Positions 1 through 33,211 of a stretch of DNA of 64,000 nt are shown here, piece by piece (positions within the stretch are counted from its first letter, which is position 1; each line of letters opens with the position of its first letter). Made by a program: the position numbers and the translations under genes. The stretch comes from Actinomycetota bacterium. Lineage in GTDB: Bacteria; Actinomycetota; Actinomycetes; S36-B12; UBA5976. A model generated the notes under the pieces. The model was not told the DNA's origin. It saw nothing but the letters and a program-made list of their open reading frames with translations, and did not search any database. The stretch is from positions 194,657 through 258,656 of the forward strand of contig CANGDR010000001.1 of assembly GCA_947452765.1 (NCBI GenBank). The letters run 5' to 3'.

Positions 1-1215
1 CATTGGATCAGCGCTGGTAATTTCAATCCGGCCGCGAGCGTCCGAATACATTGGCCCGACGTGGACTTGGTAGCCATGACCGTGCTCAATTCCAGTGCCG
101 TCATAGCGAACTGCAATTGGCAAGAAGTGGTACATCAAGTTTGGATATTTAACCTTGTCATTCGAGCAGGCAAACCCACCACCCTCGAAGTGGTTTGTAG
201 CACCTGGCCCCTTGCGAGCAAATAGCCAAGCAGCGCCAATGAAAGGTCGCTTCCACAGCTTTAGATTTGGGTTCATGGTGATTGGAAGTTTGCAGGCGTG
301 CTGAATGTAAACCTCGAGGTGATCCTGCAAGTTCTGACCAACACCAGGTAGATCCTTGATAACTGGAATGCCATGTCGCTTCAATAACTCGGCTGGTCCG
401 ATTCCGGAAAGTTGCAGGACTTGTGGGGTATTAATTGCGCCACCACAAAGTACAACATTCTTCGCGCGATATTCTGTAATCGTTTTTCCGCGTTGGGCGA
501 TCACACCAACTGCTTTGTCGCCTTCAAAAATAACTCGATGCACTTGGTGGCGAGTCTGGATTGTTAAATTCTTGCGGTGCATGACCGGGTGCAAGTATGC
601 ACGTGCGGAAGACCAGCGTCGGCCCTTCTTTACGTTTTTGTCGAATGGCCCAAAACCTTCTTGGCTAAATCCGTTAACGTCATCAGTTCGCTTAAAGCCG
701 GCAGCCACAGCAGCGTCAAAGAATGCCGTGAAAAGCGGATTTTTTGCGGGACCTTTTTCTAAGTAAAGCGGACCACTGTGACCGCGGTAAATATTGTCAT
801 TTGGAACGCCAGTAGCATTTTCCATTTTCTTGAAGTATGGCAAGCAATGTGCAAAGTCCCAATTCTCCATACCTTTGTCAGCAGCCCAGCGTTCGTAGTC
901 CATGGGATTTCCGCGCTGGAAAATCATGCCATTAATAGAACCGGAACCGCCAAGCACTTTGCCGCGACCTTGATACACCTGGCGGCCATTCATGTGTGGC
1001 TCAGGATCGGTCTGATAGATCCAGTCGTAAAACTTATTACCGATTGGGAAAGTTAGGGCAGCTGGCATGTGAATGTAGACATCCCACCAGGAGTCTTTGC
1101 GCCCCGCTTCCAGAACTAATACTTCGTTAGCTGGGTTTTCGGATAGCCGATTACCTAGTACTGATCCGGCCGAGCCACCACCAATGATTAGGTAGTCATA
1201 TTCCTTAACACTCAC
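1..1215 (-). CDS. betA: Choline dehydrogenase / GMC-family oxidoreductase, partial (C-terminus lies beyond the window start)
   Basis: The minus-strand frame is open from GTG at 1215 to the window edge. My translation starts [26 protein letters not shown] (FAD GxGxxG fold), then GGSGSINGM and [18 protein letters not shown], typical of BetA/GMC enzymes. It is absent from the ORF track only because it runs off the edge. The start shares 1 nt with the folD stop. Confidence 0.85.
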
Positions 1216-2063
1216 TAGAGATTTCCTTCAGCTGTGTCGACCACATTAGCTAGCAACATCGCACGAGTCATCGGTCCTGTGCCACCTGGCATCGGTGCAA
1301 TCCAGCCCGCAACTTGCGCACATGATGGATCTATATCACCTAGTAAACCGGCATCGGTCCGTGTTATGCCAACATCAACAAGTGCCGCACCGGCTTTGAT
1401 CATGTCTGGCTTGATGAAATGTGGAACTCCTGCTGCAGCAACAACTATGTCAGCACGTTTTATGTGGGCTGCCATGTCTTTAGTGCCGGTATGACACAAG
1501 GTGACAGTGGCATTTTCAGTACGCCGAGTCAGGAGTAAGCCAAGTGGTCGTCCGACTGTTACGCCACGACCGACTATGCAAACCTCAGCACCATCAAGGG
1601 GTACACCGTAGGCACGAAGAAGTTCAACGATGCCTCGCGGAGTACATGGCAGGGGAGCAGGCTCACCAAGAACTAATCGACCCAAGTTAGTTGGATGCAA
1701 ACCATCCGCATCTTTTCGTGGATCAATTGCTTCCAATGCTGCGTTGGCATCTAGACCCTTTGGCAATGGAAGTTGCACAATGTATCCAGTACAAGCTGGA
1801 TCTGCATTTAATCGAGCGATTGCAGCAAGTACATCCTGCTGACTAGCAGTTGCCGGAAGATCTTCCCGAACGGATGTAATACCGACTTCGTGGCAATCTT
1901 TGTGCTTTCCGCCAACGTAGGAGTGGGATCCTGGATCATCGCCAACCAGAATTGTGCCCAGTCCTGGGTAAATCCCTTTTGCGTTAAGCGCAGTCACGCG
2001 AGTCGCTAAATCACTCTTAACTTTTGCAGCTGTTGCGACTCCATCAAGAATTACGGCAGACAT
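1215..2063 (-). CDS. folD: Bifunctional methylene-THF dehydrogenase / methenyl-THF cyclohydrolase
   Basis: ORF 1215..2072 has FolD-like sequence ([29 protein letters not shown]). I prefer the ATG at 2063 (GGAAGTGGGA lies upstream) over the GTG at 2072. Confidence 0.9.
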
Positions 2064-2086
2064 TATTCCCACTTCCGAGTAAGTAT

Positions 2087-2692
2087 TTACAGGTATTCAA
2101 CAGTTGAATCAGTTAGTACATCCCACAAATGCTGGGCAAACGATGAGCGCACAAAAATCAAGTAGCAATTTTCGCAGCAGTGCCAAAGAATGACTGGTGA
2201 TTTTGCCATCAAGCCTTGAGTGCAAGCGTCGATTGGAAACGTAGAGTCACGTAAATCCTGTTCCCACACATGTCCCAGAATTTCTTTGACTTTTGGTCCA
2301 TAGATTTCTATTTTTGTACGCTGGGCACTTACATCAACTACTGAAATGTGATGCGAATCTTGCACGGGCTTAAGAAGCGATGAAATATCAGCAGTGCCGG
2401 TTAAGAACCACCAATCTGGACCTAAGCAAAGCGCACTAATTCCATTCGCACTTGGCTCTTGGCCTTGACTGACTATGCAATCTGCATCTTTGCGAACAAC
2501 TGAACCAACTTTTGGATTCAAGGTCAACCCAAGTGCCTGGTTTACGGCTGCAAATCCTGGTGAAGCTGGATCTACTCGTAAATCAATTCCAGGAGTAAAT
2601 GGAACTTCGGAAATGTAGATGTTTTTATCTAACCCACCATGAACTGCGCCACCAAGTGGGCTAGTTGCTATGGCGCTATTTACCTTAACCAT
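2087..2692 (-). CDS. soxG: Sarcosine oxidase gamma subunit
   Basis: A ~200 aa ORF sits directly after soxA, the usual SoxG position in soxBDAG operons. The start is taken at ATG 2692, which overlaps the soxA stop by 8 nt. The longer ORF-track start at 2719 lies inside soxA. Confidence 0.75.
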
Positions 2693-5354
2693 CGCGACGC
2701 ACGTTCTCCTTATCAACAAATATTGGTTCAGTTATTACTGCAGTCTCAGTTCCAATTGCAACTCGCTCACCAATTCGAGCCCGGCCATTGTGAACAAGCG
2801 CCATTGCAAATGAGCGATTAAGTTCCCCAGAGAAATATGAACTAGTTACATATCCAATGTGAGGAATCGGTGGTTTGGCGCCCTTGTGCTGCTCCTCCGA
2901 AAAGTAAGCACCTTCTGGAATCACGTACTCGGATGTATCTGGCAACAAGCCAACTAATTGGTGGCGATCTGGGCGACTGGTATCAGAACGACTAAATGAT
3001 CGCTTTCCGATAAAGTCCTTCTTTTTCGAGACAATCCAATCCATACCCAAGTCATCTGGAGTTTGGGTGCCATCGGTTTCCTGGCCAACGATTACGAAAC
3101 CTTTCTCGGCACGAAGTACGTGTAGAGATTCCGTTCCGTAAGGTGTGACATCCAGCGGAGCACCTAATTCCATAACCTTGTTCCATAGCTCCAGGCCATA
3201 CCAAGCTGAAACATTTATTTCGTAGGCAAGTTCGCCGGAGAAGGAAATTCGAGCAATGCGAGCTGGAATTCCAGCAACATCCGCGTATTTGTTTTCCATG
3301 AAGGCGAAACCTTCTTTAGAAACATCCAGGCCAGGGGATAGCATCGCCAACAAATCACGACTCTTGGGTCCAACAATTGCAACCGTGGCGATTTGTTCCG
3401 TCACTGATGTGCAAAATACTTCCAAGTGTGGCCATTCAGTTTGTAGCCATTCTTCGAGCCAGTCCATAACTTTGGCAGCGCCACCAGTGGTGGTAGTCAT
3501 TAACCAGTGATTTTCACCGAGCCTTGTCGTCACGCCATCGTCAAAGACCATGCCATCGACACCACACATTAGGCCGTACCTGCTCATGCCGACTTTAAGA
3601 GTCGAGAACATGTTGGTGTAAATCTGATCTAGGAATTCACCCGCATCTTTACCTTGGATGTCGATCTTTCCCAAAGTGCTGGCGTCCATAACTGCTACGC
3701 CATTACGTGCAGCACGGCATTCTCGTAAGACTGCAGCATGCAAATCTTCGCCCGGCTTTGGGAAAAACCAAGGACGCTTCCATTGACCAACATCTTCCAT
3801 CGGGGCACCCGCCGCAACGTGCCATGGATGAATTGAGGTCGTGCGAATTGGCTCAGTGTGTAATCCACGCTCCCGGCCTGCCAACGCTGCAAACGGAACT
3901 GCAATGTAAGGCGGGCGGAACGTCAGTGAGCCAATTTCATCAGGCGCTAAGCCAACTAGATTGCCGATAAGTCCCATAGTTAAAGTTCCGCTAGTTTTAC
4001 CCTGATCATGCGCGGTACCAATTGCGGTGTATCGCTTTACATGCTCAATGCTGACCATGCCAGCACCAACTGCACGGCGTAAATCACGTAAGGTGGCATC
4101 GCGCTGATGATCAACAAAAGCGACTAACGCCTGAGTTTCATCAAGTTCTGGACCAAAGTAGACGGCTGGTTCAAGTCCAACAAAGTCACCTGCCAGCATG
4201 CCGACCGTGCTGATGCTCTTAACTTTTGAACGCACGATAAAGGCTGCTCGCTTATTACTCCAAGTTGGTTTGATGCCGATGTAGGTTGCTAGGTGAACTG
4301 TAGGGGTCCAGCCACCTGAAATTGCAAGCAAGTCAGTGGAAATAGTTTCGTTCAATCCAGACTTTGGATCAGTGACCACGACACTCGAGAGAATTCCTTC
4401 CAAGTTGCCATTGGTGTCAAGGGCAGTCGCGCCCTTGAGGATTCGAATTCCGAGTTTTTCCGCAGGTTTGCGAGCTGATTTACTGCTGGCTTTCGACAAC
4501 TTCTTACGGATGTCAATGATGGCAAGAACTCTAACGCCTGATTTGTGCAACCGAATTGCATCGGTATAGCCCTGGTTATCTACTGTTACAACGACTGCAG
4601 TCTTGAATTTCGATACGCCCCGTTCGACATAAGTCGCGGCAGTATGCGAAAGCATAATTCCGGGACGATCGTTATTTGCAAATACAAGTGGTCGCTGGAA
4701 CGCACCTGTGGCAAGCACAGTGTGTTTAGCGCGAACATGCCAAGTACGAATTCTGGCAACATCAGTTGATACTTTACTGCTGACGTGATCAGTTCTACGC
4801 TCTACCGCTACTGCATATCCTTGGTCATAAGTTCCAATTACCGTGGTGCGCTGTAAGTGGGTGACATTTTCCAGCGCGAGACTAGCAAGCAACTCGGGTG
4901 GTATCACTTCACCACACTGCTTGGCATGTCCACCAACTTCAGGCTGGTCATCCATGATGATTACGGTCTTGCCCTTGTCGGCATACTTTTTAGCTTCAGT
5001 GAGCCCAGCTAGGCCTGCTCCCACAACTAAGACATCCGCATGGCGGTAAGCCCGGTCATATCGGGAAATGTCTCGAGTGTCTGGCAAGTCACCAATGCCG
5101 GCAAGACTGCGAGCAACCAACCCCTCAGTAATTTCAACTGTGGTTGCAGGAACCATAGGTTCGCCGGCGCCTGAGTCAACATTCACTAATGCATTTGGCT
5201 CATCTACCCAAAGGCTCATGATTCCGCGTGGTCGATCTCGGTAAGTGCTATCAGTGAAATGCAAGACGCCATTTCGCAATAGGGCAGTAGCCAATGAATC
5301 ACCGGCCTGGCCGACGTAATCGACACCGTCAAACTTGAAAGTTACATTACTCAT
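2685..5354 (-). CDS. soxA: Sarcosine oxidase alpha subunit (heterotetrameric type, folate-dependent)
   Basis: The 889 aa protein has an N-terminal 2Fe-2S-like/NAD fold (ADVLVVGAGLAGL) and a C-terminal GcvT-like aminomethyltransferase domain. It has an ATGA overlap with soxD. Confidence 0.9.
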   Translation of the reverse strand: MSNVTFKFDGVDYVGQAGDSLATALLRNGVLHFTDSTYRDRPRGIMSLWVDEPNALVNVDSGAGEPMVPATTVEITEGLVARSLAGIGDLPDTRDISRYDRAYRHADVLVVGAGLAGLTEAKKYADKGKTVIIMDDQPEVGGHAKQCGEVIPPELLASLALENVTHLQRTTVIGTYDQGYAVAVERRTDHVSSKVSTDVARIRTWHVRAKHTVLATGAFQRPLVFANNDRPGIMLSHTAATYVERGVSKFKTAVVVTVDNQGYTDAIRLHKSGVRVLAIIDIRKKLSKASSKSARKPAEKLGIRILKGATALDTNGNLEGILSSVVVTDPKSGLNETISTDLLAISGGWTPTVHLATYIGIKPTWSNKRAAFIVRSKVKSISTVGMLAGDFVGLEPAVYFGPELDETQALVAFVDHQRDATLRDLRRAVGAGMVSIEHVKRYTAIGTAHDQGKTSGTLTMGLIGNLVGLAPDEIGSLTFRPPYIAVPFAALAGRERGLHTEPIRTTSIHPWHVAAGAPMEDVGQWKRPWFFPKPGEDLHAAVLRECRAARNGVAVMDASTLGKIDIQGKDAGEFLDQIYTNMFSTLKVGMSRYGLMCGVDGMVFDDGVTTRLGENHWLMTTTTGGAAKVMDWLEEWLQTEWPHLEVFCTSVTEQIATVAIVGPKSRDLLAMLSPGLDVSKEGFAFMENKYADVAGIPARIARISFSGELAYEINVSAWYGLELWNKVMELGAPLDVTPYGTESLHVLRAEKGFVIVGQETDGTQTPDDLGMDWIVSKKKDFIGKRSFSRSDTSRPDRHQLVGLLPDTSEYVIPEGAYFSEEQHKGAKPPIPHIGYVTSSYFSGELNRSFAMALVHNGRARIGERVAIGTETAVITEPIFVDKENVRRDG

Positions 5355-5629
5355 GCTGGTCTCTTTGGTTGATCGGTAAACGGTTTATAAGTTGGGCCAA
5401 ATTCATGGGTTATGGTGTTTCGCCAAACGTTAAACCAGCGCCGACAGCCAGCAGAATGTACCCAACGTTCGGCATGCCAGCCTTTTGGATTTTCTCTAAT
5501 GAAGACAAACTTCGACCATTCTTCATCAGTAGCACTTGCTGGTTCTGGATAAAAGATATTTGCGCCAGCGCCATAGTGAAATTCAGTTTCATCGCGTGGG
5601 CCACAGTAAGGGCATGGAATATTTAGCAT
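5351..5629 (-). CDS. soxD: Sarcosine oxidase delta subunit
   Basis: The 92 aa protein starts MLNIPCPYCGPRDETEF with a later HSAGCRRW (zinc-ribbon SoxD signature). An AGGAG RBS lies upstream. Confidence 0.9.
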   Translation of the reverse strand: MLNIPCPYCGPRDETEFHYGAGANIFYPEPASATDEEWSKFVFIRENPKGWHAERWVHSAGCRRWFNVWRNTITHEFGPTYKPFTDQPKRPA

Positions 5630-5638: not shown

Positions 5639-6880
5639 CTAGTGGGCTACGCCGGCTGCGCCGTGCTCGTCGATTAAGTGACCGGTAACAAATCTTTCAA
5701 GGTTGAAGGCAGCGTTCAGTTCATGTGGCTCACCGGTTGCAATGGTGTGTGCCATCGTCCAGCCTGATGCCGGTGTGGCTTTGAAGCCACCCGTTCCCCA
5801 GCCAGTATTGATAAACAAATTATCAACTGGCGTGCGACCAATAATTGGCGAGGCATCTGGGGAAATATCAACAATTCCACCCCAAGTACGCAGCAAGTGG
5901 GCACGCTCAAAAATCGGGAACAGCTCGATTGCCGCAGCTAGTTGGTGTTCAATTACATGGAAGCCACCACGCTGAGCATATGAATTAAAGGCATCTGTAC
6001 CAGCACCCATAACTAATTCACCTTTATGAGCTTGGCTAACGTAAACGTGCACCATGCCACTCATAATTACCGTGTTGTGAACTTGTTCAAGTAGTTCAGA
6101 AACCAGTGCTTGTAGTGGCCGGCTTTGAATCGGAATGTCGAAACCTGCAAGATTTGCTAACACGCTGGAGTGGCCAGCCGCAACCATGCCAACTTTTTGG
6201 GCAGCAATTGGTCCCAGGTTGGTTTTTACGCCGTGTACTTTACCTTCGCGAATATCAAAGCCGGTTACTTCGCACCCCTGAATGATGTCAACGCCCATGT
6301 CAGCAGCAGCCTTGGCATAACCCCAGGCCACCCAGTCATGCTTTGCAATGCCACCACGTGGTTGGTAAGTAGCGCCTAATACCGGGTAACGAACATCTGG
6401 ATTGATGTTCACAATCGGAGCAATTTCTTTTACTTGCTCTGGAGTTAGCCATTCACTATCGATGTCATTGATTTTGTTTGCATGGTAGTTTCGTGACTTG
6501 GCTCGAAGGTCACTTACGCTATGAGCAAGTGACATTACACCGCGCTGGCTAAAGAACATCTCGTAGCCAACTTCTTCTTCGAGATTCTCCCAAAGCTTTA
6601 ACGAGTGTTCATAAATTCCAGCTGATTCATCCCAAAGATAATTGGAGCGGATCACTGTGGTATTTCGTGCCATGTTTCCGCCAGCGAGCCAACCCTTTTC
6701 GAGAACTGCGATGTTGGTGATGCCGTGGTTCTTAGCTAAGTAGTAAGCAGTTGATAGGCCATGACCGCCGCCACCGATGATGATTACGTCATAAACCTTT
6801 TTAGGAGTAACCCGCGCAGTCCACAAAAAATCAGGATGTTCAGGTAATTCGACAGTACGTCGACGGGTCGTGGTAGCCAT
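5639..6880 (-). CDS. soxB: Sarcosine oxidase beta subunit (FAD)
   Basis: The 413 aa protein has the [19 protein letters not shown] dinucleotide fold. It holds the SoxB position at the head of soxBDAG. Confidence 0.92.
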
Positions 6881-6903: not shown

Positions 6904-9327
6904 TTACGAGCGCAGTCTGGACATTGAGGCATCGAACTGTGGGTCATCGCTGACAACCGCCGAGTACGAGGCGTCAAAGTATTTAACGGAAACTTGAGTA
7001 CCTAATGTGGTGTGTTCAATTGGCAACCAAGCGTAGGCAATTTGCTTTCCAATGGTGTGGCCAAAATACGAGCTAGTCACGTAACCGACTGGGGCACCGT
7101 TTACGAAAACTGGTTCCTTGCCCATAACTACGTGTTCTGGGTTTTCGAAAACTAAGCAAACCAATTTGCGTTTGATCGCAGCCGGATCCAAAGCCTCGAA
7201 CGCCTCTGCTCCGATGTAGCCGCCACCCTTACGAACCGAGAAAGCAAGGCCAGCTTCGTGCGGGTTATGTTCGCTCGTCATGTCAGTTCCATATGAGCGG
7301 TAACCCTTTTCCAGGCGCATGGAATTAAATGCCCCACGACCAGCAGCAATGATTCCGAATTCGTCGCCGGCTTCAAGCAATGTGTCCCAAAGCTTAAGCG
7401 CCATGTCGGCGTCGGTATAAATTTCATAACCCAGTTCGCCGACGTATGACAGGCGCCATAAAGTTGCCGGGACTTGGTCAAGATAAAGTGACTTTGCTTT
7501 GAAGTATCCGAAGGCTTCATTGGATACATCAACTTTGGTAAGTTTCTCAACGACCTTGCGGGCATGAGGTCCAAAAAGTCCCAGCCCGATAGTTCCTGAA
7601 GTTACATCTTTAATGTGAACTGTGTCAGGTGCGGCAGACTTCAACCTAGCAACATCTATTGCACTATTCGCGCCGATCATAAAGTGGTTTTCCGTAAGGC
7701 GAGTGACTGTGACGTCCGAAAGAATTCCGGCATCTTTGGTGAGCATTAAGCAGTACGTGACTGAACCTGGTGCCTTATCCAGTTTTCCAGTGGTCTGTTC
7801 CATAAGGAATTCCAAGGCGCCTTTGCCAGTAACTTCGATTCGCTTAAGTGCAGTGATGTCGAAGAGCCCAACATTTTCGCGAACGTACTGTGCTTCGGCA
7901 CCAATAATTGGTGACCAGTACCGAGCTGACCATTCGTCACGGGCTGGTGTCGGGTACTTAGCGACTAGATCTTTATTTGCTTCGTACCACTGTGGGCGTT
8001 CGTAACCGACTGCTTCCAGGAAGTGAGCGCCAAGTTCTTGTTGGCGGTGGTAGAAGCCAGTCGTACGAAGTGGCCGAGGCTTTTCCATTGGCTGCAATGG
8101 ATGAATGATGTCGTAAACCTCAATGTAGTTTTGGGCACCACGCATTGCGATGTGATTTGGACCAAGTTGGTGTGGTTCAAATCGATTTACATCGCACTCA
8201 TGTACTGCAAGTTTTGGATGTCCATCGATAATCCATTCAGCAGTAGCGCGAGCTACCCCAACGGCCTGCGTAACCCACACAGCTTCGGCAACCCAAAAAC
8301 CCTTAAGTCCATTCCATTCACCCATCAGCGGGAAAGTGTCAACGGTGAATGAGAACATGCCATTCATACCCTCAACGATTTTGGCATCTTTAAGTTCTGG
8401 CATCACCTGTGAAGCAATTCCCATAACTGGTTCCCACTCGGGACCAGTAAATGGCATTTGACTTGGCATAATTTCAGCTTTATCGAATGGCAGAATTTCT
8501 TCAGATTCAACCGGCAATGGTCGGTGTAGGTAAGAACCAATTCCCATTGCGTTAAATCTTTGACGGAAGTAGAGGTCTTCGCCTTGGTGGCGCATGATTG
8601 GGATTGTGATTTCCTCAGTCTGGTCAGCAAGCGAAGGTATGTCGTCAGTCCAAGCGAGTTGATGCGCTAGCGGCTGGAAAGCTTTTGCCATACCAAACAT
8701 GCGACCAACTTTTGGACCCCAGATACCTGCACAAGAAATTACGATTTCAGCTGGGAAGAATCCTTGGTCGGTCATTACGCCAGTGACGCGCCCATCTTCT
8801 TGCTCGATGGAGATTACTTCAGTGCGATCTTTAAAGGTTGCGCCACGTGATTCAGCTAGCCGCTGGAGTGCCTGCACTGAGCGAACTGCCTTTGCGATGC
8901 CGTCGGTAGGGCAGTAGATGGCACCAAGAATCTTGGTTGGATCAAGAACTGGATGTAGTTCGGCAGCGCGCTCCGGAGAAACAACTTCAGCTTCGTAGCC
9001 ATATGAATGTAGCCATGCGGTGCGACGATGCAATTCTTTTAAGCGCTCTGGCGTAGTTGCGATCTCTAGTGATCCAACTTGGTAGAAGCCAGGACCGTCT
9101 TCGTGCTCAACGGTTAAAAGTTTGTTGATAGTTTGGTCGGCCATTGCAGCAAGTGTCTTATTTCCGGTTACTTTTTGCACAAGTCCTGGGGCATGTGATG
9201 TCGAACCACCGGGAGCAGGCATCGGACCTTGTTCAATTACTGTGACGTCATTCCAACCACGTTCGGTCAGTTCATCGGCAAGCGAACTTCCAACTATGCC
9301 GCCACCAATAATCACAATTTTTTTCAC
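6904..9327 (-). CDS. Dimethylglycine oxidase/dehydrogenase (FAD DAO domain fused to GcvT-like folate-binding domain)
   Basis: The protein has the N-terminal VKKIVIIGGGIVGSSLADEL fold and a C-terminal aminomethyltransferase-like domain, the architecture of Arthrobacter-type DMGO. I prefer the GTG at 9327 (GGAAGG 7 nt upstream). The ORF-track ATG at 9372 would add 15 aa with no RBS. Confidence 0.85.
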   Translation of the reverse strand: MKKIVIIGGGIVGSSLADELTERGWNDVTVIEQGPMPAPGGSTSHAPGLVQKVTGNKTLAAMADQTINKLLTVEHEDGPGFYQVGSLEIATTPERLKELHRRTAWLHSYGYEAEVVSPERAAELHPVLDPTKILGAIYCPTDGIAKAVRSVQALQRLAESRGATFKDRTEVISIEQEDGRVTGVMTDQGFFPAEIVISCAGIWGPKVGRMFGMAKAFQPLAHQLAWTDDIPSLADQTEEITIPIMRHQGEDLYFRQRFNAMGIGSYLHRPLPVESEEILPFDKAEIMPSQMPFTGPEWEPVMGIASQVMPELKDAKIVEGMNGMFSFTVDTFPLMGEWNGLKGFWVAEAVWVTQAVGVARATAEWIIDGHPKLAVHECDVNRFEPHQLGPNHIAMRGAQNYIEVYDIIHPLQPMEKPRPLRTTGFYHRQQELGAHFLEAVGYERPQWYEANKDLVAKYPTPARDEWSARYWSPIIGAEAQYVRENVGLFDITALKRIEVTGKGALEFLMEQTTGKLDKAPGSVTYCLMLTKDAGILSDVTVTRLTENHFMIGANSAIDVARLKSAAPDTVHIKDVTSGTIGLGLFGPHARKVVEKLTKVDVSNEAFGYFKAKSLYLDQVPATLWRLSYVGELGYEIYTDADMALKLWDTLLEAGDEFGIIAAGRGAFNSMRLEKGYRSYGTDMTSEHNPHEAGLAFSVRKGGGYIGAEAFEALDPAAIKRKLVCLVFENPEHVVMGKEPVFVNGAPVGYVTSSYFGHTIGKQIAYAWLPIEHTTLGTQVSVKYFDASYSAVVSDDPQFDASMSRLRS

Positions 9328-9477
9328 GAGCGACCTTCCGAGGGGCGAATTCGATAGTTGCGCATAGTGCAACTAAGTGCAAATGACGCAACACTTCAAT
9401 CGTTCCGTTTCTGTGCAAAATCGTCAAGCGATTTAGTCAAATAGTCGGGAACTTGCTCAACTAAAATCCTGCAGTAG

Positions 9478-10512: not shown

Positions 10513-10581
10513 CCTTTTTCCCTCCGAGAGAGTGACCATCGACCTGATGATCAATCTGTCTCACTTGCGTGAGGCAGAAAC

Positions 10582-18997: not shown

Positions 18998-19208
18998 GTC
19001 CGGCTCCTGGCTCGTGGGTCACCTAATTAGGTAACGGCTCTAGTTACTCTGCCAAAGACTTGGGCAAATTAGTTGCCAAATCACTTGACGAATGGCTATG
19101 ACAATACCGTACTATGTGGAACATAGGTTCCAGATTATGAAAAATTATTTGGGGCTTCGAAGGTAAAAGAAAGTGCAGTTATTTCACTGTCTATATAAAG
19201 GAGGCGAG

Positions 19209-25747: not shown

Positions 25748-27288
25748 CAAAAGTATTCATCCCTCGGGATTCCGCAGCGCTATCTGTCGGAGCCGATGAA
25801 GTTGCTGCGAAAATTATTAAAATCGCAGCCAAGCAAGGGCTAGATGTGACGGTTGTTAGAACTGGCTCGCGCGGCATGTTATTTCTAGAGCCACTTATGG
25901 AGGTTGAAACTGCTGCTGGTCGGATTGGGTACGCGAATGTAACTCCAGAAATGGTCGAAGATCTACTTGCTGCAGGTGCATTAAGTGGCGCATCCCATGC
26001 GTCAACCATCGGCCAAGTTGAAAGTCACGAATACTTCGCCCGCCAAAACCGAATCACTTTCGCCCGGGTTGGAATCATAGATCCAATTTCGATAACTGAT
26101 TATGAAGCACATGGCGGGTTAGCTGGCTTAAGAAATGCTCTTGCGAAAACACCGGAATCTATTGTCGAAGAAGTTACCGAATCTGGACTTCGCGGTCGCG
26201 GCGGAGCAGGTTTTCCAGCTGGAATAAAATGGAAGACCGTTTTACTGGCAACCTCAGATCAAAAATACATTTGCTGCAATGCGGATGAAGGCGACAGCGG
26301 AACATTTGCAGATCGCATGCTGATGGAGGGTGATCCATTCACCTTGATAGAAGGCATGATTATTGCTGGCATAGCCGTTGGTGCGACAAAAGGTTTGATT
26401 TATGTCCGATCCGAATACCCACATGCGATTTCAATTTTTAACGAAGCAATTGCGGTTGCTAATTCTTCTGGATTATTAGGTTCATCTGTCCTTGGTTCGG
26501 CTCATGAATTCAATCTAGAAGTTCGAGTTGGCGCCGGATCATATGTTTGTGGCGAAGAAACTGCGATGTTGGAAAGTTTGGAAGGTAAGCGTGGCATGGT
26601 TCGCGCCAAGCCACCGATTCCTGCGTTAGTTGGCTTGTTCGGTAAGCCAACTGTCATTAACAATGTGATGACGCTGGCTGCTGTGCCAATGATTTTGGCG
26701 CAAGGGGCTGCTGCCTATCAATCGCTAGGGCATGAGCGATCGCGAGGAACTCAAGTTTTCCAACTTGCCGGCAACATAAAGCAAGGCGGAATTGTGGAGC
26801 TTGCATTCGGAACCACGCTCGGCGAACTAGTTGATGGCTTTGGCGGCGGCACATTGTCCGGCCGCCCAGTAAAGACAGTTCAAATCGGCGGCCCGCTTGG
26901 GGCATACCTAGGTAAGTCAGACTGGAATGTCCCAATGGCTTATGAGTCCTTGGCTGAGGTCGGTGGCATGCTTGGTCACGGCGGCATTGTGGTCTTTGAT
27001 GACACAGTAAATATGGCCAAACAAGCCCGTTTTGCTATGGAATTCTGTGCCGAGGAATCCTGCGGCAAGTGCACGCCATGTCGAATTGGATCAACTCGCG
27101 GGGTCGAAGTCATTGACCGAATCGTTGCCGGCGAGGAACAATCAAAGAACCTAGAACTGCTTTCAGATCTTTGCGATGTGATGGCTGATGGTTCGCTGTG
27201 TGCCATGGGTGGATTAACTCCACTACCAGTACGAAGCGCCTTGAAGCTGTTTCCTGCAGACTTCGGAATCTCGGTAGGAGTTAAGTAA
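25744..27288 (+). CDS. fdsB: Formate dehydrogenase beta subunit (NuoF-like NAD/FMN/4Fe-4S)
   Basis: The 514 aa protein has GLRGRGGAGFPAG (FMN site), CNADEGDSGTF and ESCGKCTPCR (4Fe-4S). Confidence 0.88.
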   Translation: MTKVFIPRDSAALSVGADEVAAKIIKIAAKQGLDVTVVRTGSRGMLFLEPLMEVETAAGRIGYANVTPEMVEDLLAAGALSGASHASTIGQVESHEYFARQNRITFARVGIIDPISITDYEAHGGLAGLRNALAKTPESIVEEVTESGLRGRGGAGFPAGIKWKTVLLATSDQKYICCNADEGDSGTFADRMLMEGDPFTLIEGMIIAGIAVGATKGLIYVRSEYPHAISIFNEAIAVANSSGLLGSSVLGSAHEFNLEVRVGAGSYVCGEETAMLESLEGKRGMVRAKPPIPALVGLFGKPTVINNVMTLAAVPMILAQGAAAYQSLGHERSRGTQVFQLAGNIKQGGIVELAFGTTLGELVDGFGGGTLSGRPVKTVQIGGPLGAYLGKSDWNVPMAYESLAEVGGMLGHGGIVVFDDTVNMAKQARFAMEFCAEESCGKCTPCRIGSTRGVEVIDRIVAGEEQSKNLELLSDLCDVMADGSLCAMGGLTPLPVRSALKLFPADFGISVGVK

Positions 27289-30137
27289 TGACATTGCTTG
27301 CAGATCCACGCGGCACGATGCCGATTCGTTCCGGCATTGGCGAACCTGATTATGGAACTCCTAAGTCCAGCTCCCAAGTAATGGTTACGGTCACCATCGA
27401 CGGTGAGGCACATGTAGTCCCTGAAGGTACTTCAGTAATGCGAGCCGCTGGCGAAGCAGGCTGTTCAATACCAAAACTTTGTGCGACCGATTCGCTCCAG
27501 CCATTTGGCTCATGTCGCATGTGCATCGTCGAAATCGATGGACGAAAGGGAACTCCAGCTTCTTGCACAACTCCGGTGGAGGAGGGAATGGTAGTTCGCA
27601 CCCAGACCGAGAAAGTTGCCAAACTTCGCAAAGGTGTGATGGAACTTTATATTTCCGACCATCCATTGGACTGCTTAACGTGTTCAGCTAATGGCGATTG
27701 CGAACTGCAAGACATGGCGGGTGTGGCTGGGCTGCGTGAGGTCCGTTATGGCATGGACGGCAAGAATCACCTCGATGCACCGACCGATTCATCTAATCCA
27801 TATTTTTCATTCGATGAGAGCAAATGCATTGTCTGTAATCGCTGCGTTCGCGCGTGTGATGAAGTACAAGGAACTCTCGCGCTAACCATTGAAGGCCGTG
27901 GCTTTAATTCGAAAGTAAGTCCAGGTGGGTTGAATTTCCTTTCAAGTGAATGTGTTTCGTGTGGCGCCTGTGTTCAGGCTTGTCCGACCGCAACTTTGCA
28001 AGAAAAGAGTGTCATTGATTTAGGTATGCCAACTCGCACCGTGCAAACCACTTGTGCATATTGCGGTGTTGGTTGCTCATTTAATGCCGAACTTCGTGGC
28101 GATGAACTTGTCCGTATGGTGCCTGCTAAAACTGGTGGCGCCAACGAAGGTCATAGTTGTGTGAAAGGCCGCTTTGCTTGGGGTTATGCCTCGCACTCAG
28201 AACGAATCACCAAGCCAATGATGCGCGAAAAAATTACTGATGAATGGCGTGAAGTTTCGTGGGATGAAGCAATTGAGTTTACTGCTTCCAAGCTAAAGGA
28301 AATCCAACTGCAATACGGTGACAACAGCATTGGTGGAATTTCGTCATCAAGATGCACCAATGAGGAAATCTTTGTTGTCCAAAAAATGGTTAGAGCCGCC
28401 TTTGGAAATAACAATATTGATACGTGTGCTCGCGTTTGCCACTCGCCAACTGGATATGGTTTGAGCACTACATACGGCACTTCGGCTGGCACGCAAGATT
28501 TTAAGTCGGTGGCAAAGTCAGATGTGATAGTTGTGATTGGCGCAAATCCAACAGATGCCCACCCAGTGTTTGCTTCTCGCATGAAGCGCCGGATTCGTGA
28601 AGGCGCACAACTGATCATTATTGATCCGCGCAAGATTGATCTGGTGGAATCCGCACACATTAAGGCTGACTACCACCTGCAATTGCAGCCAGGCACAAAT
28701 GTTGCTGTGATAAACGCAATCGCACATGTAATTGCAACCGAGGGTTTGATTGACGAAGTGTTCGTTTCAGAGCGCTGCGATCCAGGGCCATTTAATCGCT
28801 GGCGAAAATTTATCGAACTTCCAGAAAACAGCCCAGAAGTTGTTGAGTCCCAGTCTGGCGTTCCAGCCGAAACTATTCGCCAGGCAGCTCGGCTGTATGC
28901 AGCTGGAAATAACGCTGCTATCTACTACGGCCTTGGTGTAACTGAGCACTCGCAAGGTTCAACCATGGTTATGGGTATGGCAAACCTTGCAATGGCTACT
29001 GGAAATATCGGCCGCGAAGGTGTGGGTATCAACCCATTGCGTGGCCAAAATAATGTGCAGGGTGCCTGTGACATGGGATCGTTCCCGCATGAACTTTCTG
29101 GTTACCGACATGTTTCTGATAACGCCGTGCGTGAGCAATTTGAAGCGCTTTGGGATGTAAAGCTGCTACCGGATCCTGGCATGAGAATTCCAAATATGTT
29201 CGACAATGCGATCTCCGGAGAATTCCGTGGATTGTTTGTGCATGGCGAAGACATCGCGCAATCCGATCCAAACACCAAGCACGTTGAAAAGTCCCTTAAG
29301 TCGATGGACTTAGTTGTCGTACAGGACCTATTCCTAAACGAAACCTCTAAGTTTGCACACGTATTCCTGCCTGGCACTTCCTTCCTGGAAAAGGATGGAA
29401 CGTTCACCAATGCGGAACGTCGTATCAATCGCGTGCGACCAGTTATGGCGGCTAAGAACGGCAAGCAAGAGTGGCAAATCATCTGTGAAATTGCACAAGC
29501 AATGGGTTATGACATGCATTACGAAAATTCTGCTCAAATCATGGATGAGATTGCGCAAATTACACCGACATTCAAAGGTATTAGTTTTGCAATGCTCGAT
29601 GAAGTTGGCAGCGTGCAGTGGCCATGTAATGACGCCGCTCCTGACGGTACGCCAATCATGCACGTAGATGGTTTTGTTCGGGGACAAGGACAGTTCATGG
29701 AGACACCGTTTGTCCCAACCGAAGAACGGTCAAATCGTAAGTTCCCGCTATTGCTGACAACTGGACGTATCTTGACTCAATACAACGTTGGCGCCCAGAC
29801 TCGCAGAACAGCAAATGTAACCTGGCATCCCGAAGATGTTTTGGAGATTCACGAGTCAGATGCAGCGTTACGTGGCATTTCAGATGGTCAGAAGATCGCG
29901 GTATCAAGTCGAATTGGCGAAACAATTTTAACTGCAGAAGTAAGTGATCGAGTGCCTGCTGGAGTGGTCCACACCACGTTCCACCATCCAACTAGTGGTG
30001 CAAATGTAATCACGACGGAGTTTTCAGACTGGGCAACTAACTGTCCGGAATTCAAAGTGACTGCAGTGGAAATCCGCCCAGCTGACTCGAGCGCAGCGCC
30101 AACAAATACCCTCGAATCAGTATTGACCAAGGCTTAA
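27288..30137 (+). CDS. fdsA: Formate dehydrogenase alpha subunit (molybdopterin, Cys active site)
   Basis: The 949 aa protein has N-terminal 2Fe-2S/4Fe-4S motifs (CRMCIVE, CIVCNRCVRAC, CVSCGACVQACP, CAYCGVGC). The Mo-bisPGD domain has TCARVCHSPTG where Sec enzymes carry U, so this is a Cys-type enzyme. Confidence 0.92.
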   Translation: MTLLADPRGTMPIRSGIGEPDYGTPKSSSQVMVTVTIDGEAHVVPEGTSVMRAAGEAGCSIPKLCATDSLQPFGSCRMCIVEIDGRKGTPASCTTPVEEGMVVRTQTEKVAKLRKGVMELYISDHPLDCLTCSANGDCELQDMAGVAGLREVRYGMDGKNHLDAPTDSSNPYFSFDESKCIVCNRCVRACDEVQGTLALTIEGRGFNSKVSPGGLNFLSSECVSCGACVQACPTATLQEKSVIDLGMPTRTVQTTCAYCGVGCSFNAELRGDELVRMVPAKTGGANEGHSCVKGRFAWGYASHSERITKPMMREKITDEWREVSWDEAIEFTASKLKEIQLQYGDNSIGGISSSRCTNEEIFVVQKMVRAAFGNNNIDTCARVCHSPTGYGLSTTYGTSAGTQDFKSVAKSDVIVVIGANPTDAHPVFASRMKRRIREGAQLIIIDPRKIDLVESAHIKADYHLQLQPGTNVAVINAIAHVIATEGLIDEVFVSERCDPGPFNRWRKFIELPENSPEVVESQSGVPAETIRQAARLYAAGNNAAIYYGLGVTEHSQGSTMVMGMANLAMATGNIGREGVGINPLRGQNNVQGACDMGSFPHELSGYRHVSDNAVREQFEALWDVKLLPDPGMRIPNMFDNAISGEFRGLFVHGEDIAQSDPNTKHVEKSLKSMDLVVVQDLFLNETSKFAHVFLPGTSFLEKDGTFTNAERRINRVRPVMAAKNGKQEWQIICEIAQAMGYDMHYENSAQIMDEIAQITPTFKGISFAMLDEVGSVQWPCNDAAPDGTPIMHVDGFVRGQGQFMETPFVPTEERSNRKFPLLLTTGRILTQYNVGAQTRRTANVTWHPEDVLEIHESDAALRGISDGQKIAVSSRIGETILTAEVSDRVPAGVVHTTFHHPTSGANVITTEFSDWATNCPEFKVTAVEIRPADSSAAPTNTLESVLTKA

Positions 30138-30139
30138 CT

Positions 30140-30355
30140 GTGGATATTAAGATTCTCACTCACATGGTTGAACAAATTGAAAAGAATATCCCAGCTCACG
30201 AAGAGCAGTACTTGCGAATCTCTGAGCATTTAATTAAGTTTTGGACGCCACAAATGCGTACTGACTTATTTCAGGAAGTAAAAGAAAATCGACAGAACTA
30301 CAGCGAAGTTGTAGGACAAGTTGTCGACGATATGCGAGCAAAAGCTAAGGCTTAG
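30140..30355 (+). CDS. fdsD: Formate dehydrogenase delta subunit
   Basis: The 71 aa protein has a GTG start 2 nt after the fdsA stop and an FdsD-like HLIKFWTPQMR motif. Confidence 0.7.
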   Translation: MDIKILTHMVEQIEKNIPAHEEQYLRISEHLIKFWTPQMRTDLFQEVKENRQNYSEVVGQVVDDMRAKAKA

Positions 30356-31539
30356 TTAACTCGCCAAGGTAGCGGCAGGATTCGCACCTTTGTTCCTGCG
30401 GGATTTTCACCTTCGCTTATTACCGCAAGTGCTTTTGCATTTGCCAGCCCGCGCAACATAGCCGAGCCTCGATATTCCGTTGGCACCGCAACCCCACCTT
30501 GGAATGCAATTGGGATAACTCGGGTTCGGTCGGCTGGAAAAGACTTTTCAAGTCCTACGGAAACAAGTTCAGGTAGCTCTTCATTCAATAGCCCGCGGAT
30601 AACTGGTGCAACCACCGTAAGGAAACTAACTAGGGCAGCAAGTGGATTACCAGGTAACCCTGCAACAAATTGCCCGGAAGGAAGTTTTGCCAAAATTGTC
30701 GGATGGCCTGGGCGCATGCGAATTTCATCAACAATATAGGTTGCACGCAAATTTACAAGCGCACTACGAAGATAGTCGTTGTCACCATGTGCGGTGCCAC
30801 CTGTTGTGATAATAATTTGGGATTGCGAATTCCTAATCGAGGACGTTAACTCAGACTCACTGTCCTTGCAGTTAATCGACGATGCAATTTCCGCCCCAAG
30901 ATATTGGGCCCAGGTACCAACTTGAATTGTTAGCGAGTCTCGAATTTTTCCTGGTCCAATTTCGCCAGAGGAAACTAGTTCATCACCGGTCACGATAACT
31001 GAAACGCTTGGCCGAATCTGAACCGAGACTTGATCAAATCCAGAACTTGCAGCTAAGCCGGCTGCAGCAGGGGTAACTAAGTTGCCCGCGGCGGCGATGA
31101 TTTCACCAGGCTCGGCCTCATCACCAGGTGGGCGAATGTGTTGGCCAGGGGTGAAGGAATTCTTACTTGCCACATCGCCTTCAAATAACGTTGCCATTTC
31201 TTGTGGAATTACAAAGGAGCAGTGTGGAGGTAGGTGAGCGCCAGTGCTGACTTTCAGGGCGCAACCTGCATCAAGGTAAGGCAAATAACTGCCAGCATGA
31301 AGTTCGCCAACGATCTTCCAGGGACCTGGACCGTAGACCGCGTAACCATCCATCATGGCGGTGTGTGCCGGAGGTAACGCAAGTTCGGCTATTAGATCTT
31401 GGCTGAGCACTCGGTTAATTGCTTCTGATAGTGGCAAAGTTTCAGACCCAACGCAGGCTGCGGCTTGGAAGCTCAATGAAACTGCTTCATCCCATTCCAC
31501 ATTATGGTGGTCCAGGCTGTGGTTTTCCCCTGCCGACAT
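30352..31539 (-). CDS. moeA: Molybdopterin molybdotransferase
   Basis: The 395 aa protein is MoeA-like (MDGYAV, TTGGTAHGDNDY). It converges on fdsD with a 4-nt overlap. Confidence 0.85.
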   Translation of the reverse strand: MSAGENHSLDHHNVEWDEAVSLSFQAAACVGSETLPLSEAINRVLSQDLIAELALPPAHTAMMDGYAVYGPGPWKIVGELHAGSYLPYLDAGCALKVSTGAHLPPHCSFVIPQEMATLFEGDVASKNSFTPGQHIRPPGDEAEPGEIIAAAGNLVTPAAAGLAASSGFDQVSVQIRPSVSVIVTGDELVSSGEIGPGKIRDSLTIQVGTWAQYLGAEIASSINCKDSESELTSSIRNSQSQIIITTGGTAHGDNDYLRSALVNLRATYIVDEIRMRPGHPTILAKLPSGQFVAGLPGNPLAALVSFLTVVAPVIRGLLNEELPELVSVGLEKSFPADRTRVIPIAFQGGVAVPTEYRGSAMLRGLANAKALAVISEGENPAGTKVRILPLPWRVN

Positions 31540-31578
31540 AGGAACAATCTATCGTTCACATGTCATGCTTATTACCTG

Positions 31579-32388
31579 ATGAATGCACCGGACTCGATAA
31601 TTGTTGCTGGCGGTAGTGCCAAGCGCCTTGGTGGTATTGATAAGCCAATGTTGCCATTAAGTGAGGCTGGCGAACCTCTGCTCGTTGGCGTAATTGATGC
31701 TTGCCCGGCACAAGTGATTGTTGTCGGTCCGAAGCGGAATATCCAAAGGAAAGTTACTTGGGTCGCGGATGAATCCGAAGCGGGTGGGCCAGCTGCTGGA
31801 ATTTGGTCGGGTTTGGCTCAAGTAAAAACTGAGTATGTTTTCATTTCGGCAGCGGACCAGAACTTGAATTCGGAGACTGTTACCCGGATCTGTGAAGCAG
31901 CAGTTGGTAACGATGGGGCATGGGCAATAAGGTCCGACGGAACTGGCCAGCCCTTATGCGCGTGTGTTAATACCGACTTACTTCGAAAATTATTGGCGCG
32001 GACGCAGGGAATAAATGATTCGCCGATTCGACTGTTATCGACACTGAACCTGGTCGGGGTTAGTGTGAATCCAGGGCAAGTAACTGATTTTGATACTTGG
32101 ACTGACATTGTCAAATTTGTTAAGGGGACAAATCATATGGATCAAGTAACACAGATGTGGCTAACTAGAGTTGGCGATCTATTAAATGTTGATCACAATG
32201 AAGTCCCAGTCGAGGCGCTACTGGATTTAACGCGAGATGTGGCGCACGGAGTAGAGCGTAAGTCTGCGCCACTCACAACTTTCCTACTTGGCTATGCTGC
32301 CGGCAAGAGTTCGCTAACTGAAACTGAATTAAAGTCTTTGATCCAACATGTTTCCAATGCCGTAGTGGAATGGGAAGCAGTTGAGTAA
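31579..32388 (+). CDS. mobA: Molybdenum cofactor guanylyltransferase fused to a DUF6457-like C-terminal domain
   Basis: The start is taken at ATG 31579 (MNAPDSIIVAGGSAKRLGGIDKP, the MobA NTP-transferase signature). The C-terminal ~90 aa is a separate small domain. Confidence 0.75.
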   Translation: MNAPDSIIVAGGSAKRLGGIDKPMLPLSEAGEPLLVGVIDACPAQVIVVGPKRNIQRKVTWVADESEAGGPAAGIWSGLAQVKTEYVFISAADQNLNSETVTRICEAAVGNDGAWAIRSDGTGQPLCACVNTDLLRKLLARTQGINDSPIRLLSTLNLVGVSVNPGQVTDFDTWTDIVKFVKGTNHMDQVTQMWLTRVGDLLNVDHNEVPVEALLDLTRDVAHGVERKSAPLTTFLLGYAAGKSSLTETELKSLIQHVSNAVVEWEAVE

Positions 32389-33211
32389 TCAAGAACCCGT
32401 TTCCGCAACAAAGCGGCTGAAGGTTTTCAAGACTGGTCCAGGTGTGATTAAGGATGACCAGGTCGTTGGCGAAGAGCCACTCGAAATCCGGGTTGATGGA
32501 GGCAACGGTTTGCAACAACTTGCAATAACCATGAGAACTCCTGGCGCCGATATCGAGCTCGGTGCGGGTTTTCTTTGGACTGAAGGTTTACTTCGAACCC
32601 GCGAGGATTTAATCGGTATTACGACTTGTAAAGATAAAGAGTTATCTCCGCGCGAACAAGAGAACGTAATTGTTGCCCGAGTAGTTCCAGATGCTCCAGC
32701 AATCACGCGCACGATGGAACGTAGGTTTACCATCTCGAGTGCATGCGGCATTTGCGGCTCAACTCAGATTGACGACTTGCGCCACCGTGGTTGCACCAAT
32801 GTCTCAGCGCCTGGCATAAGCGATGAGCAACTTGTTAATTTGCCCGACATCATGCGCGATAAACAAAAGATTTTTGATCGTACGGGTGGATTACATGCAG
32901 CAGGTTTATTCGACCGTGATGGGAAGTTAGTCGTAGTTCGCGAGGATGTGGGTCGCCACAATGCAGTCGACAAAGTAATTGGCTGGGCCTTGATGAATGA
33001 TCTGCTACCACTTGATGGTTATTCACTGGCGATTTCGGGTCGCGGTGGATTTGAAATTATCCAGAAAGCAGTAGCGGCCAGAATTTCAGCAGTTGTGGCT
33101 GTTTCCGCTCCAACTTCGCTAGCAGTTGAGACGGCGCGCGAATTCGGGCTGACGCTATTTGGTTTTGCCCGCAATGGCGAGGCTACTAAGTATTCACCGG
33201 AACCAAGCTGA
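32381..33211 (+). CDS. fdhD: Formate dehydrogenase accessory sulfurtransferase
   Basis: The 276 aa protein has the conserved SSACGICGS cysteine motif and GGLHAAG. It starts at TTG and overlaps mobA by 8 nt. Confidence 0.88.
   Translation: MSNQEPVSATKRLKVFKTGPGVIKDDQVVGEEPLEIRVDGGNGLQQLAITMRTPGADIELGAGFLWTEGLLRTREDLIGITTCKDKELSPREQENVIVARVVPDAPAITRTMERRFTISSACGICGSTQIDDLRHRGCTNVSAPGISDEQLVNLPDIMRDKQKIFDRTGGLHAAGLFDRDGKLVVVREDVGRHNAVDKVIGWALMNDLLPLDGYSLAISGRGGFEIIQKAVAARISAVVAVSAPTSLAVETAREFGLTLFGFARNGEATKYSPEPS

Follow-up and report, generated by a model that had tools for sequence, protein, structure and literature searches.

A single-locus choline and glycine betaine catabolic gene cluster with a candidate corrinoid-dependent demethylation system in a freshwater actinobacterium

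Glycine betaine and choline are major osmolytes and serve as nitrogen- and carbon-rich nutrients. The window analyzed here, a 64,000-nucleotide stretch of contig CANGDR010000001.1 from an Actinomycetota bacterium (assembly GCA_947452765.1, positions 194,657 to 258,656), carries at its positions 1-33211 a run of 28 consecutive genes, recognized by open reading frame (ORF) listing and family searches and arranged in two tightly packed divergent strings. We consider it likely that this supercluster is a self-contained catabolic unit, in which two operon-like strings around a shared 175-bp control region would encode a complete route from choline, through corrinoid-dependent demethylation of betaine, to glycine and CO2.

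The minus-strand string comprises 14 genes read from 18997 to the left edge of the window (the MttB homologue, fhs, a first IclR-family regulator, betB, proVWX, the dimethylglycine oxidase (DMGO) gene, soxBDAG, folD and betA), and the plus-strand string comprises 11 genes starting at 19173 (a second IclR-family regulator, the corrinoid protein, metV, metF, the pterin methyltransferase, the RACo-type activase, the DUF1638 gene and fdsGBAD). After fdsD, the right end is formed by moeA on the minus strand and by mobA and fdhD on the plus strand, the last base being 33211. Gene spacing lies between -36 and 54 bp throughout, save for 156 bp between dmgo and proX and for the 175-bp divergent region; the DUF1638 gene and fdsG overlap by 4 bp. 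An earlier note on this DNA had described a contiguous cluster of about 33 kb in which all genes fit choline and betaine catabolism, and NCBIfam, Pfam and PDB searches recovered every gene that it named, each in its place; the DUF1638 gene is additional to its list. Of the extent that it gave, 1-33211, the right end stands but the left end does not, since the cluster runs about 440 bp beyond the window. The whole cluster thus measures about 33.7 kb and is sharply bounded at both ends. In relatives, betA forms the left boundary, and the genes to its left in a 94-95%-identical relative are unrelated (an EamA transporter, a transketolase/E1-like protein, an MFS transporter, an acyl-CoA dehydrogenase and an isochorismatase); to the right of 33211 lie a tRNA, oligoribonuclease and unrelated housekeeping genes (tig, clpP1P2, clpX, valS, folC, ndk and others).

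The components proposed to transfer the first methyl group of betaine to tetrahydrofolate (THF), and to keep the corrinoid active, are the following:

17558-18997, minus strand: MtgB-like non-pyrrolysine methyltransferase of the MttB superfamily, proposed glycine betaine:corrinoid methyltransferase (PF06253, 626 bits, residues 3-477)
19961-20617, plus strand: MtgC-like corrinoid (B12-binding) protein with DVHDIG at residues 102-107 (NF047996 MtgC_2, 206 bits, cut-off 370; MtbC, 192; 1y80, 185; MttC, 144)
21951-22802, plus strand: MtgD-like methylcorrinoid:THF methyltransferase, pterin-binding, of MeTr/AcsE/MetH type (PF00809; NF005719, 306 bits, cut-off 259; 2yci, 157 bits)
22834-24702, plus strand: RACo-type ATP-dependent reductive activase with an N-terminal [2Fe-2S] domain (3zyy, 331 bits, full length; Fer2 and RACo linker, middle and C-terminal domains)
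24699-25289, plus strand: DUF1638 protein (PF07796, 89 bits)

The MtgB-like ORF encodes 479 aa without an in-frame UAG, and its alignment is ungapped at the pyrrolysine position; because the ORF is uninterrupted, no pyrrolysine is expected. Against the PDB, the protein scored 440 bits with 4yyc (a putative trimethylamine methyltransferase), 405 bits with 2qne (Desulfitobacterium hafniense MtgB) and 403 bits with 9yce (annotated as "glycine betaine methyltransferase"), whereas the true trimethylamine MttB, 7xcl, reached only 134 bits. Identity to D. hafniense MtgB is 41% over the full length. In the latter enzyme, mutagenesis and a betaine-bound structure identified Y97 and F356 as cation-pi contacts with the quaternary amine, and R312 and H348 bind the betaine carboxylate (Picking et al., 2026, PMC13080624). 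Mapping of these positions through an HMMER alignment shows that three of the four betaine-site residues are kept in the window protein, namely Y98 (equivalent to Y97), R312 and H348, with Y98 invariant in the alignments. Near the fourth position the window protein has a WLEGG motif, the corresponding D. hafniense stretch being HTAGILQYFM, and W352, located four residues before G356, is invariant in the actinobacterial clade and also occurs in 4yyc and in the Paracoccus homologue. W352 may thus substitute for F356, an I352W/F356G swap that would keep one aromatic residue in the loop. An AlphaFold2 model built from an 11-sequence alignment had a mean predicted local distance difference test (pLDDT) score of 40 and was unusable for the orientation of W352. 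Together, gene context and active-site residues support the proposal that the MtgB-like protein is a glycine betaine demethylase.

The remaining components fit this assignment. The corrinoid protein combines PF02607 and PF02310 and contains the DxHxxG motif, and its best models are MtgC and MtbC, both below their cut-offs. The MtgD-like gene has metV and metF immediately upstream. In Rhodobacterales, whose split methionine synthase/MtgBCD systems include them, DUF1638 proteins have been linked to the reactivation of cobalamin (PMC12478193). With the D. hafniense MtgABC system the locus shares an MtgB homologue, the equivalents of Y97, R312 and H348, a cognate DxHxxG corrinoid protein and a RACo/RamA-type activase. 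The D. hafniense system differs in being anaerobic, whereas the host of the window is aerobic and goes on with O2-dependent oxidases; moreover, the THF methyltransferase found here is of the MeTr/MetH pterin-binding type, and no MtgA-labelled chain occurs among its 17 PDB matches (E<=1e-5).

Within one module on plasmid IV of Paracoccus aminovorans, each of the seven core proteins has an orthologue, with identities of 33-56%; in this module an MttB-family gene stands beside a series that encodes, in order, the B12-binding protein, DUF1638, MetV, MetF, the methyl-THF:cobalamin methyltransferase and the ASKHA/RACo protein. Only a few genes separate this P. aminovorans module (NZ_LN832562.1, 272506-297936, locus L152) from genes for carnitine 3-dehydrogenase and a 3-keto-5-aminohexanoate cleavage-like function, an arrangement that hints at a carnitine-to-betaine feed in that organism. 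Also near the same module are UbiD/UbiX and U32 peptidase genes of the type involved in O2-independent ubiquinone biosynthesis.

The genes assigned to uptake, to the formation of betaine from choline and to the removal of the second and third methyl groups all lie on the minus strand:

1-1215, minus strand: betA, choline dehydrogenase (GMC oxidoreductase), partial (NF002550, 643 bits, cut-off 605)
2087-2719, minus strand: soxG, sarcosine oxidase gamma subunit (TIGR01375, 96 bits, below the cut-off; its place in soxBDAG supports the call)
2685-5354, minus strand: soxA, sarcosine oxidase alpha subunit with a THF-binding GcvT-like C-terminus (TIGR01372, 1014 bits, cut-off 1164)
5351-5629, minus strand: soxD, sarcosine oxidase delta subunit (PF04267, 116 bits)
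5639-6880, minus strand: soxB, sarcosine oxidase beta subunit (TIGR01373, 604 bits, cut-off 529)
6904-9372, minus strand: DMGO with FAD domain and THF-binding GcvT domain, 807 aa by the gene callers' start (835 bits, full length, to Arthrobacter globiformis DMGO 1pj5; Pfam DAO, FAO_M, GCV_T and GCV_T_C)
9529-10554, minus strand: proX/opuAC-type substrate-binding lipoprotein of a betaine/choline ATP-binding cassette (ABC) transporter (PF04069, 124 bits; weak ChoX/ProX matches)
10582-12522, minus strand: proW-type permease of 646 aa with two fused permease domains (TIGR03416, 368 bits in two stretches; BPD_transp_1 twice)
12522-13550, minus strand: proV, ABC ATPase of the betaine/proline/choline family, 342 aa as called (TIGR01186, 359 bits, cut-off 327)
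13543-15048, minus strand: betB, betaine-aldehyde dehydrogenase (TIGR01804, 584 bits, its best family, below the cut-off of 669; neighbor of betA in many relatives)

The betA fragment covers 405 of about 550 residues, the C-terminal ~145 aa lying past the left edge, and a 95%-identical full-length BetA from a relative (L087:14140-15792) reaches 830 bits with TIGR01810 (cut-off 732). The DMGO scores 835 bits with 1pj5 vs 356 bits with mammalian DMGDH, oxidase and dehydrogenase chemistry not being separable with certainty from sequence. The beta, delta, alpha and gamma genes of sarcosine oxidase adjoin, as expected of the heterotetrameric enzyme. In comparison with A. globiformis DMGO (1pj5) and the SoxABGD enzymes of Corynebacterium and Stenotrophomonas (2gag, 1x31), the proteins of the window are alike in the full-length DMGO match, the four adjacent Sox subunits and the GcvT-type THF domains. 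SoxA is shorter here (889 aa) than in the known heterotetrameric sarcosine oxidase and falls below the TIGR01372 cut-off, and, unlike the known Arthrobacter, Corynebacterium and Stenotrophomonas enzymes, DMGO and Sox sit downstream of a corrinoid first step.

The transporter varies within the lineage. Its substrate-binding protein and permease exist as two very different alleles, with ~95/91% identity in one relative and ~50/55% in others, and the flanking betB and dmgo stay 82-94% identical (L085 compared with L005/L006/L011/L087), a pattern that suggests replacement of the transporter cassette, possibly with altered substrate preference.

The genes attributed to one-carbon (C1) oxidation and to the supply of the molybdenum cofactor (Moco) are distributed over both strings and the right end:

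1215-2072, minus strand: folD, methylene-THF dehydrogenase/methenyl-THF cyclohydrolase (NF010789, 471 bits, cut-off 401)
15894-17561, minus strand: fhs, formate-THF ligase, which in the reverse direction would give formate and ATP (NF010030, 909 bits, cut-off 652)
20626-21009, plus strand: metV, Cys-rich small subunit of a MetVF-type methylene-THF reductase (PF12225, 88.5 bits; 8 Cys)
21009-21920, plus strand: metF, methylene-THF reductase, proposed to work in the oxidative direction (PF02219, 90.6 bits)
25286-25747, plus strand: fdsG, gamma subunit of NAD-dependent formate dehydrogenase (NF004638, 129 bits, below the cut-off of 198; its position in fdsGBAD supports the call)
25744-27288, plus strand: fdsB, NAD/FMN-binding beta subunit, NuoF-like (TIGR01959, 441 bits)
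27288-30137, plus strand: fdsA, catalytic subunit with molybdenum bis-pyranopterin guanine dinucleotide (Mo-bisPGD), Cys type (TIGR01591, 906 bits, cut-off 666; RVCHSPTG at residue 382)
30140-30355, plus strand: fdsD, delta subunit (PF11390, 38 bits)
30352-31539, minus strand: moeA, molybdopterin molybdotransferase (family match)
31504-32388, plus strand: mobA, Moco guanylyltransferase with a fused C-terminal DUF6457 (family and domain match)
32381-33211, plus strand: fdhD, formate dehydrogenase sulfurtransferase/chaperone (NF001943, 270.5 bits, cut-off 269)

All four Fds subunits are present, and fdsA has no in-frame TGA, so that Cys and not selenocysteine is the predicted molybdenum ligand. 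The 5' end of mobA overlaps the divergent moeA by 36 bp. FdsGBAD resembles the O2-tolerant NAD+-dependent molybdenum formate dehydrogenases of Cupriavidus necator and Rhodobacter capsulatus in its four subunits including FdsD, its Cys-His site (RVCHSPTG) and the adjacent FdhD and Moco genes. Unlike in the Cupriavidus/Rhodobacter type, the fds genes are apparently co-transcribed here with corrinoid activation genes, and mobA carries the DUF6457 fusion.

Regulatory features are found in and around the divergent region:

15060-15839, minus strand: first IclR-family regulator (HTH_IclR, IclR_C)
19117-19132, no strand assigned: perfect 16-bp palindrome TGGAACATAGGTTCCA, candidate IclR operator, in the 175-bp divergent region between mtgB and the second iclR gene
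19173-19964, plus strand: second IclR-family regulator, 251 aa as called (family match)

The palindrome lies inside a block of about 38 nt (19105-19142) that is nearly invariant in six relatives. It has a single exact copy in the window, and elsewhere in the cluster only mismatched matches were found, all within coding sequence. We propose that it is the operator of one or both IclR regulators, through which the two regulators probably control both strings. An Rfam scan of the whole window returned four tRNAs only, and no cobalamin, THF or glycine riboswitch.

The arrangement is conserved. All window proteins were compared by tblastn with 80 species-representative loci centred on the MttB homologue, which are the best matches and not a random sample; linkage was counted in 50 actinobacterial species loci with full flanks, a neighbor being a gene within 10 kb of the MtgB homologue. 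The divergent core, with the MttB homologue on one side and IclR, MtgC, MtgD, RACo and DUF1638 on the other, is near-universal (MtgC in 50 of these loci, MtgD in 49, RACo in 47 and DUF1638 in 45), and betB is a neighbor in 38, proV in 36 and betA in 31. Adjacency of metVF (7-8 loci), fhs (9), dmgo (5), sox (2) and fds (4-5) is for the most part a feature of a Nanopelagicales-like lineage, in which four loci (L005, L010, L011 and L015) have the same gene order as the window. The comparison of gene neighborhoods across Actinomycetota that the earlier note had suggested thus finds recurrent linkage: the core corrinoid module adjoins betA/betB/proVWX in dozens of actinobacterial species, and the full supercluster is largely limited to the Nanopelagicales-like lake lineage. 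A SoxA scan further recovered the order betB-proVWX-dmgo-soxBDAG-folD-betA from some 30 contigs of lake metagenomes, the lowest SoxA identity being 61%.

With respect to distribution, at least 586 matches were confirmed in species-representative genomes, and each of the 80 examined loci that bears an informative taxon label is actinobacterial. The nearest species-representative genomes are metagenome-assembled genomes (MAGs) from lakes, Lac Pavin and Lake Mendota among them, that carry the label Candidatus Nanopelagicales or Actinomycetota. A protein identical to the MttB homologue is also present in ENA and NCBI metagenome assemblies, among them GCA_947450265.1 and a contig of 156 kb. Cultured bacteria are represented among the loci as well, by Nocardioides species (carriers include N. 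aquiterrae JCM 11813, N. panacisoli JCM 16953 and N. islandensis KCTC 19275) and by Asanoa ishikariensis DSM 44718; in Nostocoides jenkinsii Ben 74 the core alone is seen. The identities, order, packing and conservation of the genes are shown here, and synteny in the related lake MAGs and contigs shows that their grouping is more than chance.

These genes can be assembled into a pathway. The ProVWX-type transporter would import choline and/or glycine betaine, and BetA and BetB would convert choline to glycine betaine. The MtgB-like TIM-barrel methyltransferase would then transfer a betaine methyl group to Co(I) of the MtgC-like corrinoid protein, from which the MtgD-like pterin-binding methyltransferase would pass it to THF; whenever the corrinoid is oxidized to Co(II), the RACo-type activase, with DUF1638, would restore it at the expense of ATP and an electron. 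The MtgB-like system is assigned to the step from betaine to dimethylglycine because this step is the one gap in the route and no other enzyme system here lacks an assigned substrate. MetVF would oxidize methyl-THF to methylene-THF. The second methyl group would be taken off by DMGO and the third by sarcosine oxidase, both enzymes using O2 and forming methylene-THF via their GcvT-type domains, with glycine left as the end product encoded in the cluster. FolD would convert methylene-THF to 10-formyl-THF, Fhs would release formate with formation of ATP, and FdsGBAD, its Mo cofactor matured by MoeA, MobA and FdhD, would oxidize formate to CO2 with formation of NADH. In this scheme we infer the substrate specificity of MtgB, the direction of MetVF and Fhs, co-transcription and regulation.

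The logic of the earlier note, that all three betaine methyl groups enter THF-bound C1 units and are then oxidized, holds on sequence and gene context, which likewise support its picture of an O2-independent corrinoid first step alongside O2-dependent oxidases. In line with the latter, the O2-dependent DMGO and SoxBDAG, together with a copper amine oxidase and a truncated globin in the window, fit an aerobe. Its description of the route as leading to CO2 is sustained by gene content for the methyl carbons, but not for the whole molecule, as no glycine-consuming enzyme is encoded in the window. The absence of BHMT and GbcAB from the window, which it had also claimed, was borne out: no homologue of either was found outside the cluster among window ORFs of at least 120 aa. 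The sole GbcB-like match, at 42 bits vs a cut-off of 500, was rejected because it falls on the activase's [2Fe-2S] ferredoxin domain.

Several observations weigh against the betaine pathway as drawn. The search for GbcAB and BHMT covered the window, and either may exist elsewhere in the genome. The MtgB-like protein is just 41% identical to a characterized enzyme in a superfamily whose paralogues take other quaternary amines, and at the fourth betaine-contacting position F356 is replaced by Gly356. MtgC, betB, soxA, soxG and fdsG all score under NCBIfam equivalog cut-offs, oxidation of methyl-THF via MetVF requires an electron acceptor, none having been identified in this work, and for the actinobacterial members of the system the support comes from sequence and gene context.

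These points bear on alternative readings of the locus. The MttB homologue could act on another amine, such as proline betaine, carnitine, gamma-butyrobetaine, choline or trimethylamine, with betaine handled by GbcAB or BHMT encoded elsewhere. Substrates of the MttB superfamily are diverse, with up to seven paralogues per genome (PMC12478193; PMC13080624), and the loss of F356 and the failure of any NCBIfam MtgB-specific model to match would agree with such a role; yet the protein is the sole MttB homologue in a cluster whose enzymes make betaine and use dimethylglycine, its linkage to betA/betB recurs in 31-38 of the 50 species loci, Y98, R312 and H348 are conserved, and the cluster has no enzyme for the product of any of the alternative substrates. 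Another substrate is, in our judgment, quite improbable. A somewhat better case, though still an unlikely one, can be made for the MtgC/MtgD-like pair serving also or mainly as a split methionine synthase with MtgE encoded elsewhere, a function compatible with betaine demethylation. In Ruegeria pomeroyi, MtgC and MtgD each have two functions (PMC12478193), and the same component set is present here, including RACo/RamA and DUF1638. However, no homocysteine-binding (MtgE/S-methyltransferase) gene was found in the 64-kb window, the genes lie amid the purely catabolic fds, fhs and sox genes and seem to be transcribed together with them, and the corrinoid protein best matches methanogen/anaerobe-type MtgC and MtbC models, not MetH.

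It could also be argued that the genes are mere neighbors and not one co-regulated unit. Promoter and terminator scans of 15-34.5 kb found fewer sites than shuffled sequence, were uninformative on operon structure and lent it no operon-level support, and sox, dmgo, fds and fhs are usually not beside the MtgB module outside the lineage. Nevertheless, gaps of at most 54 bp or overlaps extend over 14 and 11 same-strand genes, an identical order recurs in many related lake genomes and contigs at protein identities down to 60-75%, and unrelated genes start directly beyond both ends, which together make a chance neighborhood extremely improbable. Betaine demethylation by a co-regulated unit remains the preferred reading.

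The closest published parallels to this betaine-demethylating unit come from marine Proteobacteria. In Ruegeria, mtgC and mtgD knockouts can no longer grow on betaine, and induction is reported for MtgB, RamA, DUF1638 and MetF2 (Mausz et al., 2025, PMC12478193). A Phaeobacter mtgB1 gbcAB double mutant shows no growth on betaine, in a study that adds mtgB1 genetics and cobalt control (bioRxiv 10.64898/2025.12.19.695462). In other Alpha-, Gamma- and Deltaproteobacteria of marine origin, genes for reactivation, C1 oxidation and later demethylation are frequently colocated, even in operons (PMC12478193). In that work, Actinomycetota are represented solely by a 5% share of the mtgC reads from the ocean (Mausz et al., 2025, PMC12478193).

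The locus has the same parts as the MtgBCD systems of Ruegeria pomeroyi and Phaeobacter inhibens, i.e., a PF06253 methyltransferase, a small B12 protein, a pterin methyltransferase, an ASKHA/RACo-type activase, DUF1638 and a dedicated MetF, and, as in the marine proteobacterial systems, the host is aerobic and genes for later demethylation and THF-linked C1 metabolism are co-located. Unlike those systems, the host here is a freshwater actinobacterium, the regulators are of the IclR type, no MtgE lies in the neighborhood, and choline oxidation through formate dehydrogenase and Moco maturation are united in one two-operon block; the window proteins are just 33-56% identical to the proteobacterial module, as compared with Paracoccus. 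The principle is therefore known, since work published in 2025 on marine Proteobacteria described aerobes that demethylate betaine by a B12-dependent route and have downstream genes nearby, and a corrinoid demethylase beside O2-dependent oxidases is conceptually no longer surprising. What is distinctive is the phylum, the habitat, the lack of a nearby MtgE, IclR control and the whole route in one block. Full-text searches of the literature found no description of an actinobacterial or freshwater supercluster, nor, in the literature searched, of the betaine-to-dimethylglycine step in Actinomycetota.

Taken together, these data allow a broader reading, which we put forward tentatively and hold to be rather less than even in probability: abundant uncultured freshwater Actinomycetes could carry a complete, single-locus, B12-dependent module converting choline or betaine to glycine and three CO2, with an MtgB clade that would bind betaine through a rearranged aromatic pair, W352 and G356 replacing I352 and F356, and in aerobic Actinomycetota the step from betaine to dimethylglycine could be supplied by the same module, as carried by cultured Nocardioides, Nostocoides and Asanoa. 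The removal of the first methyl group in aerobes without GbcAB was resolved only in 2025, and only in marine Proteobacteria, a solution that the locus would extend beyond that phylum. It suggests that widespread lake bacterioplankton depend on B12/cobalt for the catabolism of choline and betaine; if this is true and the hosts are unable to make cobalamin, osmolyte and C1 turnover in lakes by dominant bacterioplankton would rely on external B12 and cobalt. The cultured Nocardioides, Nostocoides and Asanoa carriers make the proposal directly testable. The cluster further offers an unusually complete natural parts list, comprising transport, three demethylations, C1 oxidation with ATP and NADH formation, corrinoid repair, Moco maturation and regulators, and should aid pathway reconstruction as well as the annotation of genes now labelled "trimethylamine methyltransferase".

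Other features of the window lie at or beyond the edge of the cluster. Four tRNA genes occur at 33347-33419 (minus), 37317-37389 (minus), 49999-50069 (minus) and 50139-50211 (plus), the first at the right boundary of the cluster. Despite the tRNA at that boundary, recent horizontal transfer finds no support, GC content staying flat at 0.47-0.52 (~49%) along the whole window. Two amine-related gene pairs, an APC-family permease with a pyridoxal phosphate (PLP)-dependent decarboxylase at 34270-37290 and a copper amine oxidase with an APC-family permease at 46163-49743, have no established link to the betaine pathway. A truncated bacterial-like globin is encoded at 40851-41225 on the minus strand, not adjacent to the cluster. 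Figures on betaine-related gene expression in the Phaeobacter preprint list a group III truncated hemoglobin, ctb (bioRxiv 10.64898/2025.12.19.695462), and a connection of the window globin with the betaine pathway would be speculative. The window also encodes an Rv2466c-like mycothiol-dependent nitroreductase, which fits an origin in Actinomycetota.

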